The notes beneath the pieces were generated by a model. It was not told the DNA's origin and made no database searches. It saw only the letters and a program-made list of their open reading frames with translations. From Alphaproteobacteria bacterium (GTDB lineage: Bacteria; Pseudomonadota; Alphaproteobacteria; JANQMY01), in NCBI GenBank assembly GCA_028289425.1, contig JANQPL010000014.1:122170-186169 (forward strand): DNA of 64,000 nucleotides. The letters are read 5' to 3'. Within the stretch, counting starts at the first letter, position 1; the number at the start of each line of letters is the position of its first letter. Positions 22,541 through 38,143 of the stretch are shown piece after piece. The translations under genes and the position numbers were made by a program.

Positions 22541-22613
22541 CCATCCCGCTCCCCCTTCCCAACCACCCGAACCAGGGTACCCTCGGAGGGGTTGGGAAGG
22601 GGGAGCGGGATGG
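22541..22613. repeat. C-rich perfect hairpin element: 24-bp arms CCATCCCGCTCCCCCTTCCCAACC / GGTTGGGAAGGGGGAGCGGGATGG. Copy 1.
   Basis: Perfect 24-bp inverted repeat with a 25-nt loop, directly after an ACAD gene. A related copy is at 36396..36460. It may act as a terminator but has no U-tract. Confidence 0.65.
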
Positions 22614-33239: not shown

Positions 33240-34289
33240 TTACGATGAAGCCGTCCCCCGCCCCACAATCCACGGCAGATCGAGAAACGTTTTGATGCCC
33301 GGATGCGCCGCCACCACATAGGGAATGGCGTTGACCGCATGCATGCCGGTGGCAAGCAACCCGTCGCTGATCCAATCGGCCTTGAATTCCATATGCATGC
33401 GCGGTTCGCCGGAAATGGTGATGGAGTGATCCCCCTGGGGCCAGTCGGGCGCGACGCTTCCATGCATGCGCCAAACGGTTTCGTGGACAATCACTTTCTT
33501 GCCGCCCTTCATGCCAGCCCATTCCCAGTGCTGACCCGCGATGGTTCCCTTGCGGACAATACCGGCCGCGGTTTCCAGATCGTCCGGCGCGTAGGCGCGG
33601 ACCGTCTCTTCCGCAATGCCGTCAAGATCCAAGCCCAGGCCGTCGGCGATCATCTGGACGTTTTCACGAAAGAGCCCCGTCAGCCAAAACTTGTAGCGCT
33701 CGATTTGCTTGGCGAATTCTTCTTCGGTTTTGCCGAACCCCATCATGTCGAACATGATTTCGGGGGAAGGATAGAACTGGAAATTGCTGATCTCGCGCAC
33801 ATAGATCTGCTCGATGCGCTTTGACAGCGACGACATGGTGAGCGGCAGCACGTCGCCCAGCCAGCCCGGGTTGAGCCCCGTGGAATGAAATGTGGCGCCG
33901 CCCCGCCGGCAGGCCTCTTCCAATTTGTGGGTGATCTCTTCCCCATAGACCTTGGGATACATGTAGCCCACCGTGGTGATCACGTTCTTGCCCGCCGCCA
34001 GCAGCTTGCAGAAGTTCTCGATGTCGGCATAGCGGTCGTCGCCATAAACCAGCGACGGCAATGCGGTGTGGATCACCACATCCGCATGGGCATGGACGAT
34101 CTCGTCCACATGATGGGTCGATTTAACGCCAAGGGGCTCGATGCCCGCGATCACGCCCGCATCTTGCCCGGCCTTGTCGGCGGAATAGACATACAGGCCG
34201 GCAAGCTTCAGGTCGGGCCGCTCCGCCACCGCGCGGATCACATGCTTGCCCACATTGCCGCTCGACCATTGAATGACTTTGGTGACCAT
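33240..34289 (-). CDS. DapB-like NAD(P)-binding oxidoreductase (dihydrodipicolinate reductase-like / amine dehydrogenase family).
   Basis: N-terminal Rossmann motif VIQWSSGNVGKHVIRAV. The start is placed at the ATG at 34289 (MVTKVIQW). The ORF track begins at 34355. Confidence 0.55.
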   Translation of the reverse strand: MVTKVIQWSSGNVGKHVIRAVAERPDLKLAGLYVYSADKAGQDAGVIAGIEPLGVKSTHHVDEIVHAHADVVIHTALPSLVYGDDRYADIENFCKLLAAGKNVITTVGYMYPKVYGEEITHKLEEACRRGGATFHSTGLNPGWLGDVLPLTMSSLSKRIEQIYVREISNFQFYPSPEIMFDMMGFGKTEEEFAKQIERYKFWLTGLFRENVQMIADGLGLDLDGIAEETVRAYAPDDLETAAGIVRKGTIAGQHWEWAGMKGGKKVIVHETVWRMHGSVAPDWPQGDHSITISGEPRMHMEFKADWISDGLLATGMHAVNAIPYVVAAHPGIKTFLDLPWIVGRGTASS

Positions 34290-34314
34290 GGGGCACCTCC
34301 TTATATTAAGTGCT

Positions 34315-34392
34315 GGCGCCATCCTAGTGTCGTGGTTCAGAAGTTCGCAATACAATCTCAGCGAGTCCGGAAGCGAACTTCTGAACCTAAAA
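34315..34392. repeat. 78-bp hairpin element, CTAGTGTCG...CGACACTAG with inner 15-bp stem GGTTCAGAAGTTCGC. Copy 1 of a tandem pair.
   Basis: A long imperfect inverted repeat framed by CTAGTGTC / GACACTAG. It is followed directly by a diverged second copy. Confidence 0.6.
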
Positions 34393-34405
34393 CGACACTA
34401 GATTC

Positions 34406-34481
34406 AATGATTTCCTAGTGTCCTTACGAATCCGAAGTTCGTAGGGAGCAAGCTGTTTTAATGCAACGAACTTCGGATTCG
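34406..34481. repeat. 76-bp hairpin element, CTAGTGTCC...GGACACTAG with inner stem GAATCCGAAGTTCGT. Copy 2 of the tandem pair.
   Basis: Same terminal motif and a related inner stem (xxTxCxGAAGTTCGx) as copy 1. Confidence 0.6.
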
Positions 34482-34538
34482 GGACACTAGCGGGATCGCC
34501 CCGGGGACAAAGCGTTTTCGGCACAGGGCTTTAATAGA

Positions 34539-35030
34539 ATGGCGAACATGAGAAATGTGACCATCAGAGCCGCAACGCTCGACGACAAAGACGCATCGTT
34601 GCGGCTCTACGAGCAAATAGATGAGCTGCACCGTCAAGCGCGGCCGGATATCTTTCGCGTCCCCGATGGCGCACGGCGGTCAGAGACATTCCTCAAAAAG
34701 CGCATTGAGAATGACGGGTGTGCCATGTATGTGGCGCAGGCCGGGGAGACGGTCGTCGGACTTGCAACCATTATTCTGAGGCGTACACGGGAAGATTCCA
34801 TCCTGCGGAAGCAGTACTATGCGGAGGTCGACGAGATTGTCGTCGATACCGCTCACCAGCAGCGCGGCACGGGAACGCTTCTGCTGGAGGCGTGTTTGGA
34901 CTGGGCGCGCCGGCAGCCGGATGTGACCGCCGTGACGCTCGGTGTTCACGAATTTAACGCAAACGCCCGGCGGTTCTATGAGAGCAAAGGCTTCAAAACC
35001 TTCTACCGGCAGATGGAGATTGAGCTTTAG
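34539..35030 (+). CDS. GNAT family N-acetyltransferase.
   Basis: Acetyl-CoA-binding motif QQRGTGTLLLEA. 163 aa. Confidence 0.75.
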   Translation: MANMRNVTIRAATLDDKDASLRLYEQIDELHRQARPDIFRVPDGARRSETFLKKRIENDGCAMYVAQAGETVVGLATIILRRTREDSILRKQYYAEVDEIVVDTAHQQRGTGTLLLEACLDWARRQPDVTAVTLGVHEFNANARRFYESKGFKTFYRQMEIEL

Positions 35031-35085: not shown

Positions 35086-35574
35086 TTAGCGCCTTCTCTT
35101 TCGCTTCTTACGGTCAGCCTTGTCTTTTTCAACGGGATAAACTTGATGCTCTGGGTCCCACCACAACAATCTTAAGATGTTTTCATGCTGCGGCCACCAA
35201 AACGCCCAAGCGCGATTTTTGCCAGTAAGTCGCAGTGAAATCAGCTCATCGAATTGGTCCATGCCCAATTTCTGCAACCTAACTTGAGCACTGCTATGTA
35301 GTTTATTGACCCCAATTCTGTGAGATCCTCCAGATTTTATTTGATCCCAGTTCTTACCTTCAAATTCGCGGAGCTTGTTGATTACTTCTAAGGCCTTGCC
35401 ACTCTCGGCAAGTTGGGACCAGCCAAAAGGACCTTCGCTGTCAGTGTTTTCAAACTTCCAGGCGAGCATCATATCGCTTTTTTTAGACGGAGCAGCGACT
35501 TTTGGGAGGCTCTTTGTATCGCGAATCCTAAATTCCGATTTTGGCCGGCGGGCTTTCCCCTTGCTTCTTTTCAC
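35086..35574 (-). CDS. Putative toxin partner of the Panacea antitoxin; 162 aa with K/R-rich termini and no recognisable domain.
   Basis: Its GTG start overlaps the antitoxin TAG stop by 1 nt (TAGTG on the minus strand). Both the N- and C-termini are basic. It lies in a low-GC islet. In-frame ATG codons also occur at 35472 and 35469. Confidence 0.5.
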   Translation of the reverse strand: MKRSKGKARRPKSEFRIRDTKSLPKVAAPSKKSDMMLAWKFENTDSEGPFGWSQLAESGKALEVINKLREFEGKNWDQIKSGGSHRIGVNKLHSSAQVRLQKLGMDQFDELISLRLTGKNRAWAFWWPQHENILRLLWWDPEHQVYPVEKDKADRKKRKRRR

Positions 35575-36005
35575 TAGAGCAAGCCGCTATAGTACTCGGC
35601 CATTGCGGAGTGAGAAATTTCTCTGTTTGAACGCGCGTCTTCCGGCAAACCCTCTCGCGCTTCCTTCCAGGGCCGTTCTCGATGAGTTAGCGCACTGAGC
35701 TGCGCTGCGCTCTTCTTCCCGTAGTATTCTACAACGACCTCAATCGTCTCTTTTTCTTCGTCTGATAGGTTACGAATGTCCCCGCTTGGAGGAGTGGAGA
35801 TATTGAACCGCCCTTTGTGCCAATCATATAGCTCGCGTACAACCGGCCCATTCGCCCACGCAAGAACCCTCTCTTTGAAAATCGGTTTCTCATCCCAAAC
35901 CAAAGACCAGGCTTGTGAGTAGTAGACGAGCTTTTGAAGCTTCATTGCACTCATCTTGCCGTGAAGCTTCACGATGTATCGAGCTACATCGAATACGTTG
36001 GACAT
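35574..36005 (-). CDS. Panacea-domain (DUF4065) SocA-like antitoxin.
   Basis: The N-terminal pattern MSNVFDVARYIVKLHG..MSAMKLQKLVYYSQAWSLVW...AWANGPVV matches the DUF4065 / SocA consensus. The start is set at the ATG at 36005. The ORF track begins at 36047. Confidence 0.75.
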   Translation of the reverse strand: MSNVFDVARYIVKLHGKMSAMKLQKLVYYSQAWSLVWDEKPIFKERVLAWANGPVVRELYDWHKGRFNISTPPSGDIRNLSDEEKETIEVVVEYYGKKSAAQLSALTHRERPWKEAREGLPEDARSNREISHSAMAEYYSGLL

Positions 36006-36038
36006 GGCGCGAATTCCTCGTACGAACCAACATAGCAA

Positions 36039-36056
36039 TTGATTCATTCAAATCAA
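36039..36056. promoter_or_regulatory. Palindromic candidate operator TTGATTCATTCAAATCAA, just upstream of the antitoxin start.
   Basis: TTGATT / AATCAA inverted repeat 34 bp upstream of the antitoxin ATG on the minus strand, within an AT-rich promoter region. Confidence 0.4.
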
Positions 36057-36276
36057 TAGGTTGCATATTCGTGAGTCTAAACAATAAGTTACTTACAAAG
36101 CCTCACCAACGAAACCGTGTTATTTCAATCTTGGAAAACACAAAGATCGCGACTTCGGCAAGCCATAGAGTTAGCTGGTAGCAGAGATACCTATTCGTGT
36201 ATAATTCTTAATCCGAGGGGAGGCCCCGGTACGCATGAGAGATTCCGATGGCCTCGACAGATTTCCGCCCACTCAT

Positions 36277-36307
36277 GGCCCGCAATAGCGGGCCATTCGT
36301 GTTTTTG
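36277..36307 (+). terminator. Rho-independent-terminator-like hairpin GGCCCGCAATAGCGGGCC followed by ATTCGTGTTTTT.
   Basis: A 7-bp GC stem followed by a T-run on the plus strand. It sits in the 550-bp leader between the TA islet and the Rieske oxygenase gene. Confidence 0.4.
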
Positions 36308-36395
36308 GACCCTGCCGACAGGGGGGCCAGATCCCGAAATCGGGATGAACCCCATGCGCCCATCTTTTCAATAGATATTGAAGGTGCCTCGCCGG

Positions 36396-36460
36396 CCCGC
36401 TCCCCCGTCCCAACCACCCGCCAGGGTACCGTATTCGGGCGGTTGGGACGGGAGAGCGGG
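36396..36460. repeat. C-rich hairpin element, copy 2: CCCGCTCCCCCGTCCCAACC / GGTTGGGACGGGAGAGCGGG.
   Basis: 20-bp arms with one mismatch. The loop (ACCCGCCAGGGTACC...) is related to the loop of copy 1 at 22541..22613. Confidence 0.6.
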
Positions 36461-36488
36461 TGGCCTGGTCATCCGTCAAACAAAGCCG

Positions 36489-36502
36489 TTGATCTAGATC
36501 AA
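36489..36502. promoter_or_regulatory. Perfect 14-bp palindrome TTGATCTAGATCAA, about 90 bp upstream of the Rieske oxygenase start.
   Basis: Exact dyad symmetry. A related TTGATC-N10-GATCAA lies at 6188..6209, also about 90 bp upstream of an oxidoreductase gene. Confidence 0.35.
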
Positions 36503-36592
36503 TCGCAAATTACAACGCGCGTGGCAAAATTCTGCTCATGGACCCGGCCGCGGACCCAAGCGGCGGGCGTCTCTCACGGGAGGAGAGTGCAC

Positions 36593-38143
36593 ATGACAGA
36601 GACAACCACCGGAACCAACCGTTCCGCCGGCATCACCTATCTGGAACTGCTCGACCAAGACAGCCATCCGGTCCGGCCGATTTTGCGGGTCGACAGCCCC
36701 ATGGAACCGGGGCCCACCAAGGTGCCCGTTGAGCGCTATTTCTCGAAAGAGTTCCACGATCTGGAAGTGGAGAAGGTGTGGAAGCGGGTGTGGCAGATGG
36801 CCTGCCATGAAGACGATATTCCCGACGTGGGGGACTATCACGTCTACGACATCGCCAATCTGTCCTTCCTCATTGTACGGACGGCTGAGGACGAGTTTAA
36901 GGCCTATTGGAATGCCTGCCTGCACCGTGGGCGGCAATTGAAGGAAAAAAGCGGCAAGAAGGCGTTTGCGTTCCGCTGCCCGTTCCATGGCTGGGCGTGG
37001 AATTTGGACGGGTCGATCATGCAGATCCCCTGTCAATGGGATTTCCCCACCGTCGATCCGAAAGAGTACAGCCTGCCGGAAGTGCAGCTTGACCGGTGGG
37101 GCGGCTTCATCTTCATCAACCCGGATGAAAACAACACCCAGTCGCTCGCCGATTATCTGGGCGATCTGTCGGACCAATTCACGCTGCTGCCCTATGAGAA
37201 GCGGTGCAAGGTGGCCCATGTGGCGAAGGTGTTGCGGTGCAATTGGAAAGTGGCGCAAGAAGCCTTTAGCGAAGCCTATCACGTGATCGCCACCCACCCG
37301 ACGATCCTGGAAACCATCGGCGATGCCAACACCAAATATGACGTGTTCGGAAATTATTCCCGGGCCATGTCGCCCAACTTCACGCCGAGCCCGCATTTGG
37401 CCAATATGCCTCATTTCGAGCATTTGGACGATGCGAAGCTGTACACGAAACTGCGCCATCCGCTCTCCGGCCACGTATATGAGCGCGGCGAAGACGGGCT
37501 AGTGCATGTGACCAACGGCAAAGGCACGGTCAGCAAGTTTACAGCCGGCGGCGATTGGGTCGAAGGCGAGTTGATCAACGCCGACCCGCATATGTGCGAT
37601 TGGATCGGCGGCATGCAACTGCCCGACGCGGATGAGGTGCCCTCCCCCGACCCCTATGACGTGCCCGAAGGCACCAATGTGCGGGCCGCCATGGCGGAAG
37701 GGCCGCGCAAGGCGCTACGGGACGTGTTGGGCGACAGGGTGGAAGAGATCAGCGATGCGGAATTGCTCGATTCGATCTATTACACCGTGTTCCCGAACTT
37801 TCACCCCTGGGGTTCGTTCAATCAAATCGTTTACCGATTCCGTCCGTATGGGGATGATCCGGATATGTGCATTCACGAATGCATGTATTTCGCACCCGCC
37901 CCCAAGGGCGACAAACGGCCGCCGGCGGCGCCCATCCACTGGCTGGGTGTAGACGATGATTGGTGCGAAGCACCGGAGCTCGGCATGTTGGCCAAAGTGT
38001 TCAATCAGGATGTGGTGAATATGCCCTATGTTCAGAAGGGCCTCAAAACCATGAAACAGCCCTATGTGATCTTCGCGGATTACGGCGAAACGAAGCCGCG
38101 TCATTTCCACAAATTGCTGAACGAGTGGATCGACAAACCTTAG
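36593..38143 (+). CDS. Rieske [2Fe-2S] non-heme iron oxygenase, alpha subunit (aromatic-ring-hydroxylating type).
   Basis: Rieske motif CLHRG...CPFHGW and a mononuclear iron site E..AYHVIATH. A GGAGGAGAG RBS precedes the ATG at 36593. The ORF track begins at 36248. Confidence 0.8.
   Translation: MTETTTGTNRSAGITYLELLDQDSHPVRPILRVDSPMEPGPTKVPVERYFSKEFHDLEVEKVWKRVWQMACHEDDIPDVGDYHVYDIANLSFLIVRTAEDEFKAYWNACLHRGRQLKEKSGKKAFAFRCPFHGWAWNLDGSIMQIPCQWDFPTVDPKEYSLPEVQLDRWGGFIFINPDENNTQSLADYLGDLSDQFTLLPYEKRCKVAHVAKVLRCNWKVAQEAFSEAYHVIATHPTILETIGDANTKYDVFGNYSRAMSPNFTPSPHLANMPHFEHLDDAKLYTKLRHPLSGHVYERGEDGLVHVTNGKGTVSKFTAGGDWVEGELINADPHMCDWIGGMQLPDADEVPSPDPYDVPEGTNVRAAMAEGPRKALRDVLGDRVEEISDAELLDSIYYTVFPNFHPWGSFNQIVYRFRPYGDDPDMCIHECMYFAPAPKGDKRPPAAPIHWLGVDDDWCEAPELGMLAKVFNQDVVNMPYVQKGLKTMKQPYVIFADYGETKPRHFHKLLNEWIDKP

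Follow-up and report, generated by a model that had tools for sequence, protein, structure and literature searches.

The space between two divergent genes in the window, as the whole 64,000-nt stretch of alphaproteobacterial DNA analysed here is called, is mostly occupied by a 167-nt double hairpin. With high confidence this repeat is a non-autonomous composite MITE of the IS630 type, a known kind of selfish DNA. Its arms are homologous to the TIRs of IS630-family insertion sequences, the whole repeat entered a CTAG site in a single event, and it belongs to a family with one characteristic architecture that is distributed over several orders of Alphaproteobacteria. In annotation the feature should be recorded as selfish DNA, not as a regulator, a terminator or a small RNA gene. 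A widespread alphaproteobacterial double-hairpin repeat is now tied to IS630-family transposases through a clean comparison of filled and empty sites.

Structure and insertion of the element

The element consists of two hairpin units, E1 and E2, joined by a short linker and bounded by CTAG on either side. Its parts and the two flanking genes are as follows.

33240..34289, minus strand: DapB_N/DAP_DH_C gene, NAD(P)H amine dehydrogenase-like, with its start codon 34 nt from the element
34324..34490, plus strand: whole composite element, 167 nt with both terminal CTAGs, made up of inverted E1, the 13-nt linker and direct E2
34324..34327: left CTAG junction; its TA (34325-34326) is presumably one of the two target duplicates
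34324..34401, minus strand: unit E1, 78 nt, in inverted orientation with respect to the parent insertion sequence
34324-34333 with 34392-34401: E1 outer stem, 10 bp
34334-34348 with 34373-34387: E1 inner stem, perfect 15 bp, GGTTCAGAAGTTCGC
34349-34372: E1 loop, 24 nt
34388-34391: E1 bulge, 4 nt
34402..34414, plus strand: linker, 13 nt, ATTCAATGATTTC
34415..34490, plus strand: unit E2, 76 nt, direct orientation
34415-34423 with 34482-34490: E2 outer stem, 9 bp
34424-34426: E2 bulge, 3 nt
34427-34442 with 34466-34481: E2 inner stem, perfect 16 bp, CGAATCCGAAGTTCGT
34443-34465: E2 loop, 23 nt
34487..34490: right CTAG junction; its TA (34488-34489) is presumably the other target duplicate
34539..35030, plus strand: GNAT acetyltransferase gene, with its start codon 48 nt from the element

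Both units have CTAGTGTC as their 5' end and GACACTAG as their 3' end. These shared terminal motifs, the related inner stems, the loops of about 23 nt, and the DapB-like and GNAT genes on the minus and plus strands had all been described correctly in the first-pass annotation. The two hairpins that it reported also exist, although their true positions lie 9 nt beyond the intervals given (34315-34392 and 34406-34481). The framing pattern CTAGTGTC-N50-70-GACACTAG occurs twice in the 64-kb window and in none of 100 shuffles. The motif CTAGTGTC itself is found four times in the window against 0.37 expected, and all four occurrences are inside E1 or E2. Folding energies of -40.8 kcal/mol for E1 (z -8.5) and -40.7 kcal/mol for E2 (z -8.3) answer the proposed folding check with about -41 kcal/mol per unit; z is about -8 to -9 for both units on both strands, and the strands are equally foldable.

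Profile scores place E1 on the minus strand (59.5 bits, vs 32.5 on the plus strand) and E2 on the plus strand (55.6 bits, vs 27.0 on the minus strand). Since E1 is inverted with respect to E2, the pair is head-to-head and is no direct tandem duplication; the earlier description of a tandem pair is right about two consecutive units and wrong about their orientation. A profile built on 77 pairs from other genomes matches the element from end to end (34324-34490, plus strand, 130.6 bits, E 1.4e-39) and scores 103.4 bits on the minus strand of the same interval. The 167 nt have no coding capacity, and the ORFs listed over 34324-34490 are mechanical, running in from the flanks. In Logan contigs of the same organism (SRR20820731) the assembly breaks at the hairpins, with one contig beginning in the E1 loop (L001 1-35) and another one base ahead of E2 (L002 1-77). 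De Bruijn assemblies are fragmented by such palindromes, and metagenome assemblies therefore probably under-count hairpin elements.

Empty sites were found in orthologous loci retrieved via a flanking protein. The closest relative (L195), 89-91% identical in nucleotide sequence across both genes, reads ...GGCGATCCCG-CTAG-GATGGCGCC... with a single CTAG. In the window these flanks enclose 163 additional nucleotides, with a CTAG at each junction (CTAG, 159 nt, CTAG). A single CTAG is likewise present at the empty site of L191 and L192 (86% protein identity) and of L193, and L190 carries TTAG instead of CTAG. When the 163 nt are removed, the window aligns colinearly with L191. The 13-nt linker is missing from every empty site and is therefore part of the element, so that both hairpins and the linker were inserted together. 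The insertion is younger than the divergence from a relative with about 90% DNA identity. The first-pass suggestion of a duplicated repeat has to be given up, as the pair arrived as one composite unit and the same head-to-head pair recurs in many genomes.

The filled and empty sites fit a 2-bp TA duplication and a 4-bp CTAG duplication alike; by analogy with other members of the IS630 family, the duplicated target is presumably TA (2 bp) rather than CTAG (4 bp). Independent evidence that CTAG is the target comes from long, high-GC3 ORFs that run into the ends of pairs in other sequences (L063-L182). For 23 of 31 such ORFs the stop codon is the TAG within the terminal CTAG (p = 4e-6), which indicates that the elements often land on C-TAG stop codons and that the stop is regenerated.

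IS630-family ends and the double-hairpin family

A sensitive search of plasmids with the element sequence returned a single match. The right arm of E2 has a 28-nt exact BLAST match in the Roseomonas mucosa plasmid NZ_CP147882 that covers the right end of a gene annotated as an IS630-family transposase and continues for four bases past it, and arm and IS end are identical at 24/24 positions. The Roseomonas transposase frame (L183) enters the repeat, and its stop codon is the TAG of the terminal CTAG (...GGGACACTAG). The transposase frame of IS870 is closed in the same way, by the TAG that the CTAG target creates. Used as a tblastn query, the Roseomonas transposase found 736 plasmid records. Six IS relatives were retrieved, three of which are complete elements of 1158-1212 bp from plasmids of Bradyrhizobium guangxiense, Rhodovastum atsumiense and a Sinorhizobium strain. 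All three open with CTAGTGTCC and close with ACACTAG (GACACTAG in 3/3), and the end of a Bradyrhizobium barranii copy is CCACACTAG. By hand count, the E1 arm agrees with Bradyrhizobium IS ends at 24/30 (L186) and 25/30 (L184) positions. The proteins of the IS relatives have DDE_3 and helix-turn-helix domains and are annotated as members of the IS630 family. Because the arms are homologous to IS ends, each hairpin is composed of a TIR, a short remnant and a second TIR. The MITE-like repeat, one of several readings offered in the first pass, is thus upheld by the IS630-family TIRs in the arms and by the relatives with an empty CTAG at this locus. No IS630-family transposase was detected by tblastn in the 64-kb window or in the 120 genome loci listed, and the 9-kb neighbourhood gave no match to plasmids by megablast. 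Literature searches with terminal words such as CTAGTGTCC returned primer matches only, and a search by genus and MITE returned nothing relevant.

IS630-family elements move by cut-and-paste into TA, which becomes duplicated (PMC2170065), and a preference of IS630 for TA within CTAG is attributed to Tenzen and Ohtsubo (1991) as cited in PMC2170065. Each hairpin holds two TIR copies of about 25 bp, opposed to one another over a remnant loop of 23-24 nt, and folds because the TIRs are mutual reverse complements, not through selected RNA structure. In the model proposed here, a DDE transposase of the IS630 family, produced from another locus of the genome, would bind the TIRs and excise the element, which would then be pasted into the TA of a CTAG site with duplication of that TA. 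Mobilisation in trans of this kind is predicted from IS630-family biochemistry. Since the 64-kb window holds neither a transposase nor a second copy, mobility in the source genome is something that we infer. A full-length parent element in that genome would end in CTAGTGTCCCGAATCCGAAGTTCG. Mobilisation through the two outermost TIRs alone accounts neither for four perfectly paired arms nor for the dominance of pairs, and these features count against it as the whole mechanism. One idea is that a 76-nt hairpin may be too short for synapsis of its ends, hence the pair over the single unit.

The element belongs to a large family. A scan of species-representative genomes for two adjacent units gave at least 120 loci. 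Among those listed, 119 of 120 come from Alphaproteobacteria of several orders or from unclassified Proteobacteria MAGs, and the remaining one is a chance match. Genera represented among the loci listed include Bradyrhizobium, Afipia, Nitrobacter, Mesorhizobium, Devosia, Hyphomicrobium and Caulobacter, the last with Caulobacter ginsengisoli and alongside Caulobacteraceae MAGs (L117, L086, L123). Hyphomonadaceae, Parvularculaceae, Paramagnetospirillum, Magnetospira, Rhodopila, Micropepsaceae and Rhizomicrobium are found there as well. A profile search of 857 kb from the loci listed identified at least 120 two-unit arrays, of which 118 of 120 have the same head-to-head arrangement and none the opposite one, together with at least four four-unit arrays and at least 16 apparent singles. 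Of the nine genome-locus singles inspected, most prove to be pairs in which one partner has decayed or been truncated, or pairs that a contig end interrupts. Viral contigs scanned for the framing pattern also contain clear relatives, including a four-unit array (L049). A consensus search of plasmids returned Roseibium and Labrenzia only, and no Sinorhizobium or Rhizobium plasmid.

Family members are uniform in design. CTAGTGT termini are present in 207/207 units, nearly all of which are 72-80 nt long (two outliers measure 84 and 88 nt). Within aligned pairs the second unit usually has CC-type ends, and the loops of the two units are roughly reverse complements of each other. The linker, with the consensus AATCATAnnnTTG, shows a conserved sequence and direction in 77 pairs, and its orientation follows that of the pair. 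Near-identical whole pairs occur at different loci of one genome (L137/L131, L137/L094, L083/L113), which identifies the pair as the multiplying unit. Co-evolution of the units within pairs, which would point to a single transposase recognising all four arms, is not significant (similarity 0.617 within vs 0.610 between; 466 of 2000 permutations at or above the observed value). Among the loci listed, MFD05513.bin.1.205 has four pairs and Bradyrhizobium australafricanum two. Applied to the 64-kb window, the copy search recommended in the first pass reveals no second copy of the element by profile; other genomes hold several copies each. Copies lie between convergent (13), divergent (10) and tandem (19) genes, crude statistics that convey the spread of contexts only, and 21 of 76 pairs overlap ORFs, spurious ORFs being the probable cause.

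Several smaller variants accompany the family. At L164 4032-4148 an internally deleted unit, a 27-nt hairpin, CTAGTGTCC-CGAATCCGA-GGACACTAG, with GAATC in its loop, lies beside a full unit, the two together measuring about 117 nt, and another internally deleted unit, of 51 nt, is found at L092 3313-3363. Two other sequence families in viral contigs share the frame CTAGTGTCC...GGACACTAG. The first is 68 nt long with iterated TAGTGTCC-like motifs and an AT-rich centre, and the second is 76 nt long with a conserved GATGCCCCA...GCTGGCTGA interior. Contigs with these framed families form one group comprising L004, L010, L015, L020, L025, L039, L043, L045, L048, L050, L053, L055 and L059, and a second comprising L007, L009, L034, L060 and L061. 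The 68-nt and 76-nt families could be other IS630-type derivatives or phage sites.

Alternative readings and known repeat systems

Stable hairpins close to gene starts invite an interpretation as RNA, either as a pair of structured small RNAs or as a 5' UTR leader that would regulate one flanking gene or both in cis. Both strands give very stable hairpins, the element lies 34 and 48 nt from the two start codons, and stem covariation is strong: in an alignment of 58 second units, double changes that preserve pairing affect 15 of 24 stem pairs. G-U intermediates, however, occur at just two positions of that alignment. Covariation confined to Watson-Crick pairs, together with strands that fold equally well, is what palindromic DNA gives and points to TIR symmetry at the DNA level rather than to selected RNA. 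This serves as a warning that TIR symmetry alone can yield strong "compensatory" covariation, for which the near absence of G-U is the telltale. Rfam returned no match for the whole window at the gathering threshold and only microRNA-type noise at the locus at E up to 10. A scan of 34100-34700 found no terminator-like or sigma-70-like promoter site. Orthologous loci exist without the element, and other copies are found at gene ends, at gene starts and between convergent genes. An RNA function of either kind is therefore very unlikely, and the structured small RNA proposed in the first pass is not supported. The terminator proposed alongside it fails as well: an intrinsic terminator was tried as a candidate and rejected, as no GC-rich stem followed by a T-run (the U-tract of a transcript) occurs in 34100-34700 and the element lies between two gene starts.

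Two further readings concern the origin of the palindromes. REP/BIME- or REPIN-like repeats are alternating palindromic units moved as single-stranded DNA by RAYT, an IS200/IS605-like tyrosine transposase. Mutually inverted units joined by a conserved linker, as in BIME-1 (PMC2817692), and compensatory changes that maintain palindromy, as reported for REPs, would both suit such repeats, which are intergenic like the window element (PMC2817692). The arms, however, match IS630-family (DDE) ends, that of E2 at 24 of 24 positions, and not RAYT-flanking REPs; the conserved GTAG/GTGG head is missing, the termini being CTAGTGT; the units, at 72-80 nt instead of 20-40 nt, are two to three times longer; and the target is a duplicated CTAG/TA. 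A REP-like origin is accordingly highly improbable. Palindromes that arose by chance, or a local duplication outside any wider family, for which the one copy in the 64-kb window might speak, are already refuted by the shuffles, by the at least 120 related pairs in other genomes, by the homology of the arms to IS ends and by the empty site of L195.

A composite MITE may nevertheless have been domesticated, the double hairpin now serving the host or regulating itself. Such a role is compatible with a MITE origin. It could take the form of a cluster of CcrM sites (GANTC) that links the cell cycle with transposase binding or with neighbouring promoters, or of an mRNA stabiliser or attenuator. GANTC is enriched and recurs at certain positions. 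The window copy has four sites (34363, 34401, 34428 and 34476) against about 0.27 expected from the density in the window, and the 77 pairs average 2.27 per pair against 0.65 expected, 3.5-fold over composition, with sites in both CC-type unit arms (about 52% each) and at the linker start (35%). In several full-length IS ends GANTC occupies the corresponding TIR position, different orders share the conserved architecture and linker, and the CIR repeats were found through the same association with CcrM sites (PMC2229807). Set against this, 8 of 77 pairs lack GANTC and no single position is universal, copies occur in all gene contexts, and the window copy is a recent insertion that close relatives do not have. 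Domestication thus appears rather unlikely, and the GANTC enrichment hints at a constraint beyond selfish spread.

The IS630-type MITE preferred here has counterparts elsewhere. RUP of Streptococcus pneumoniae, linked to IS630-Spn1, the Correia/NEMIS elements of Neisseria, and Nezha of cyanobacteria are all IS630-family-derived MITEs (PMC2229807; PMC2817692). Like the window element, RUP, Correia and Nezha are small and non-coding, have TIRs resembling IS630-family ends, insert at TA with duplication, form a long hairpin in the transcript or single strand, are mostly intergenic, and show filled and empty sites between relatives. In the present family, unlike RUP, Correia and Nezha, two TIR-loop-TIR hairpins form a fixed head-to-head unit with a conserved linker and four TIR copies; the target is specifically CTAG, and the family is found in many alphaproteobacterial orders instead of a single genus. 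Two autonomous IS630-family elements, IS630 of Shigella sonnei and IS870 of Agrobacterium vitis, share with the window element the preference for TA within 5'-CTAG-3', but both are 1.1-1.2 kb long and have a transposase gene, which the window element lacks. Bru-RS1 and Bru-RS2 of Brucella and RIME of Rhizobium are palindromic intergenic repeats of about 100-110 bp, and for IS711, whose YTAR target sites include CTAG, Bru-RS is a hot spot (PMC3163539; PMC10800456). Set side by side from descriptions alone, these repeats resemble the window family in being alphaproteobacterial, palindromic and intergenic. The restriction of the plasmid consensus matches to Roseibium and Labrenzia argues against identity with RIME.

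The closest likeness by description is to CIR, the Caulobacter CcrM-associated intergenic repeats (Chen and Shapiro, 2003), as these are summarised in PMC2229807, PMC3184786 and PMC10969869. In the summary of PMC2229807, CIR have two long stem-loop arms with a linker, TA termini and embedded GANTC, as does the window family. They are portrayed as strictly intergenic and conserved among alpha-proteobacteria, and the window family is likewise present in Caulobacter ginsengisoli and Caulobacteraceae MAGs. CIR are given a length of about 110 bp, as opposed to 167 bp here, and the variant of about 117 nt in L164 resembles the CIR description. According to the accounts in PMC2229807 and PMC10969869, CIR have no recognised TIR, and neither a target duplication nor a mechanism is established for them. 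Compared by description only, the double-hairpin family may be the same as CIR or related to it. A reading that joins these threads would equate the family with CIR, with GANTC inside IS630-type TIRs providing the link to CcrM. Transposase binding, and with it movement of both the MITE and its parent IS, might then be gated by the hemimethylated state that follows replication, an alphaproteobacterial counterpart of the way in which Dam regulates IS10 and IS50. Synapsis would require the four-arm architecture, a single 76-nt hairpin being too short. Taken as a whole this combination seems improbable; if the family is CIR, a mechanism of mobility would be supplied that the reviews still list as missing.

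The divergent promoter region and neighbouring genes

The flanking genes are divergent, and the element therefore lies between two gene starts and not between gene ends. It takes up most of the intergenic gap of 249 bp. Insertion has split an 86-bp divergent promoter region into segments of 38 nt and 48 nt, and the halves of a conserved inverted repeat, CGCCATyCTA ... TAGGATGGCG, now lie 163 nt further apart. With the promoter region divided in this way, the DapB-like gene, the GNAT gene or both may be expressed differently from their counterparts in relatives with an empty site. The inverted repeat, CGCCATCCTA ... TAGAATGGCG at 34317-34326 and 34535-34544, brackets the divergent promoter region and is a candidate operator. 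Its counterpart in L191 (3885-4000) is a perfect 11-bp repeat, CCGCCATCCTA ... TAGGATGGCGG. The MITE insertion point is the CTAG at the edge of this inverted repeat.

Further downstream, two minus-strand genes overlap by a single base: one (35574-36047) has a SocA/Panacea antitoxin domain, and the other (35086-35574), which encodes 162 aa, has no Pfam match. The two (35086-36047) are likely to form a toxin-antitoxin pair. This putative pair separates the GNAT gene from the Rieske gene, a place where the content of the orthologous loci L191 and L196 is different, and the local GC falls to 0.525. The mechanical ORF of the Rieske oxygenase (36248-38143) comprises 631 aa, whereas its orthologues in L190, L191 and L194 are annotated with 516 aa; a true start near 36590 is probable. 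Such a start would make a hairpin at 36396-36460 intergenic. That hairpin is one of two window members (22541-22613 and 36396-36460, folding at -62 and -50 kcal/mol) of an unrelated second hairpin repeat family, with arms CCCGCTCCCCC(T/G)TCCCAACC / GGTTGGGA(A/C)GGGGGAGCGGG. Other members of this second family are present in L191 (2976-3067, between the Rieske and GNAT genes), in L178 near 710 and in L002 near 1983.
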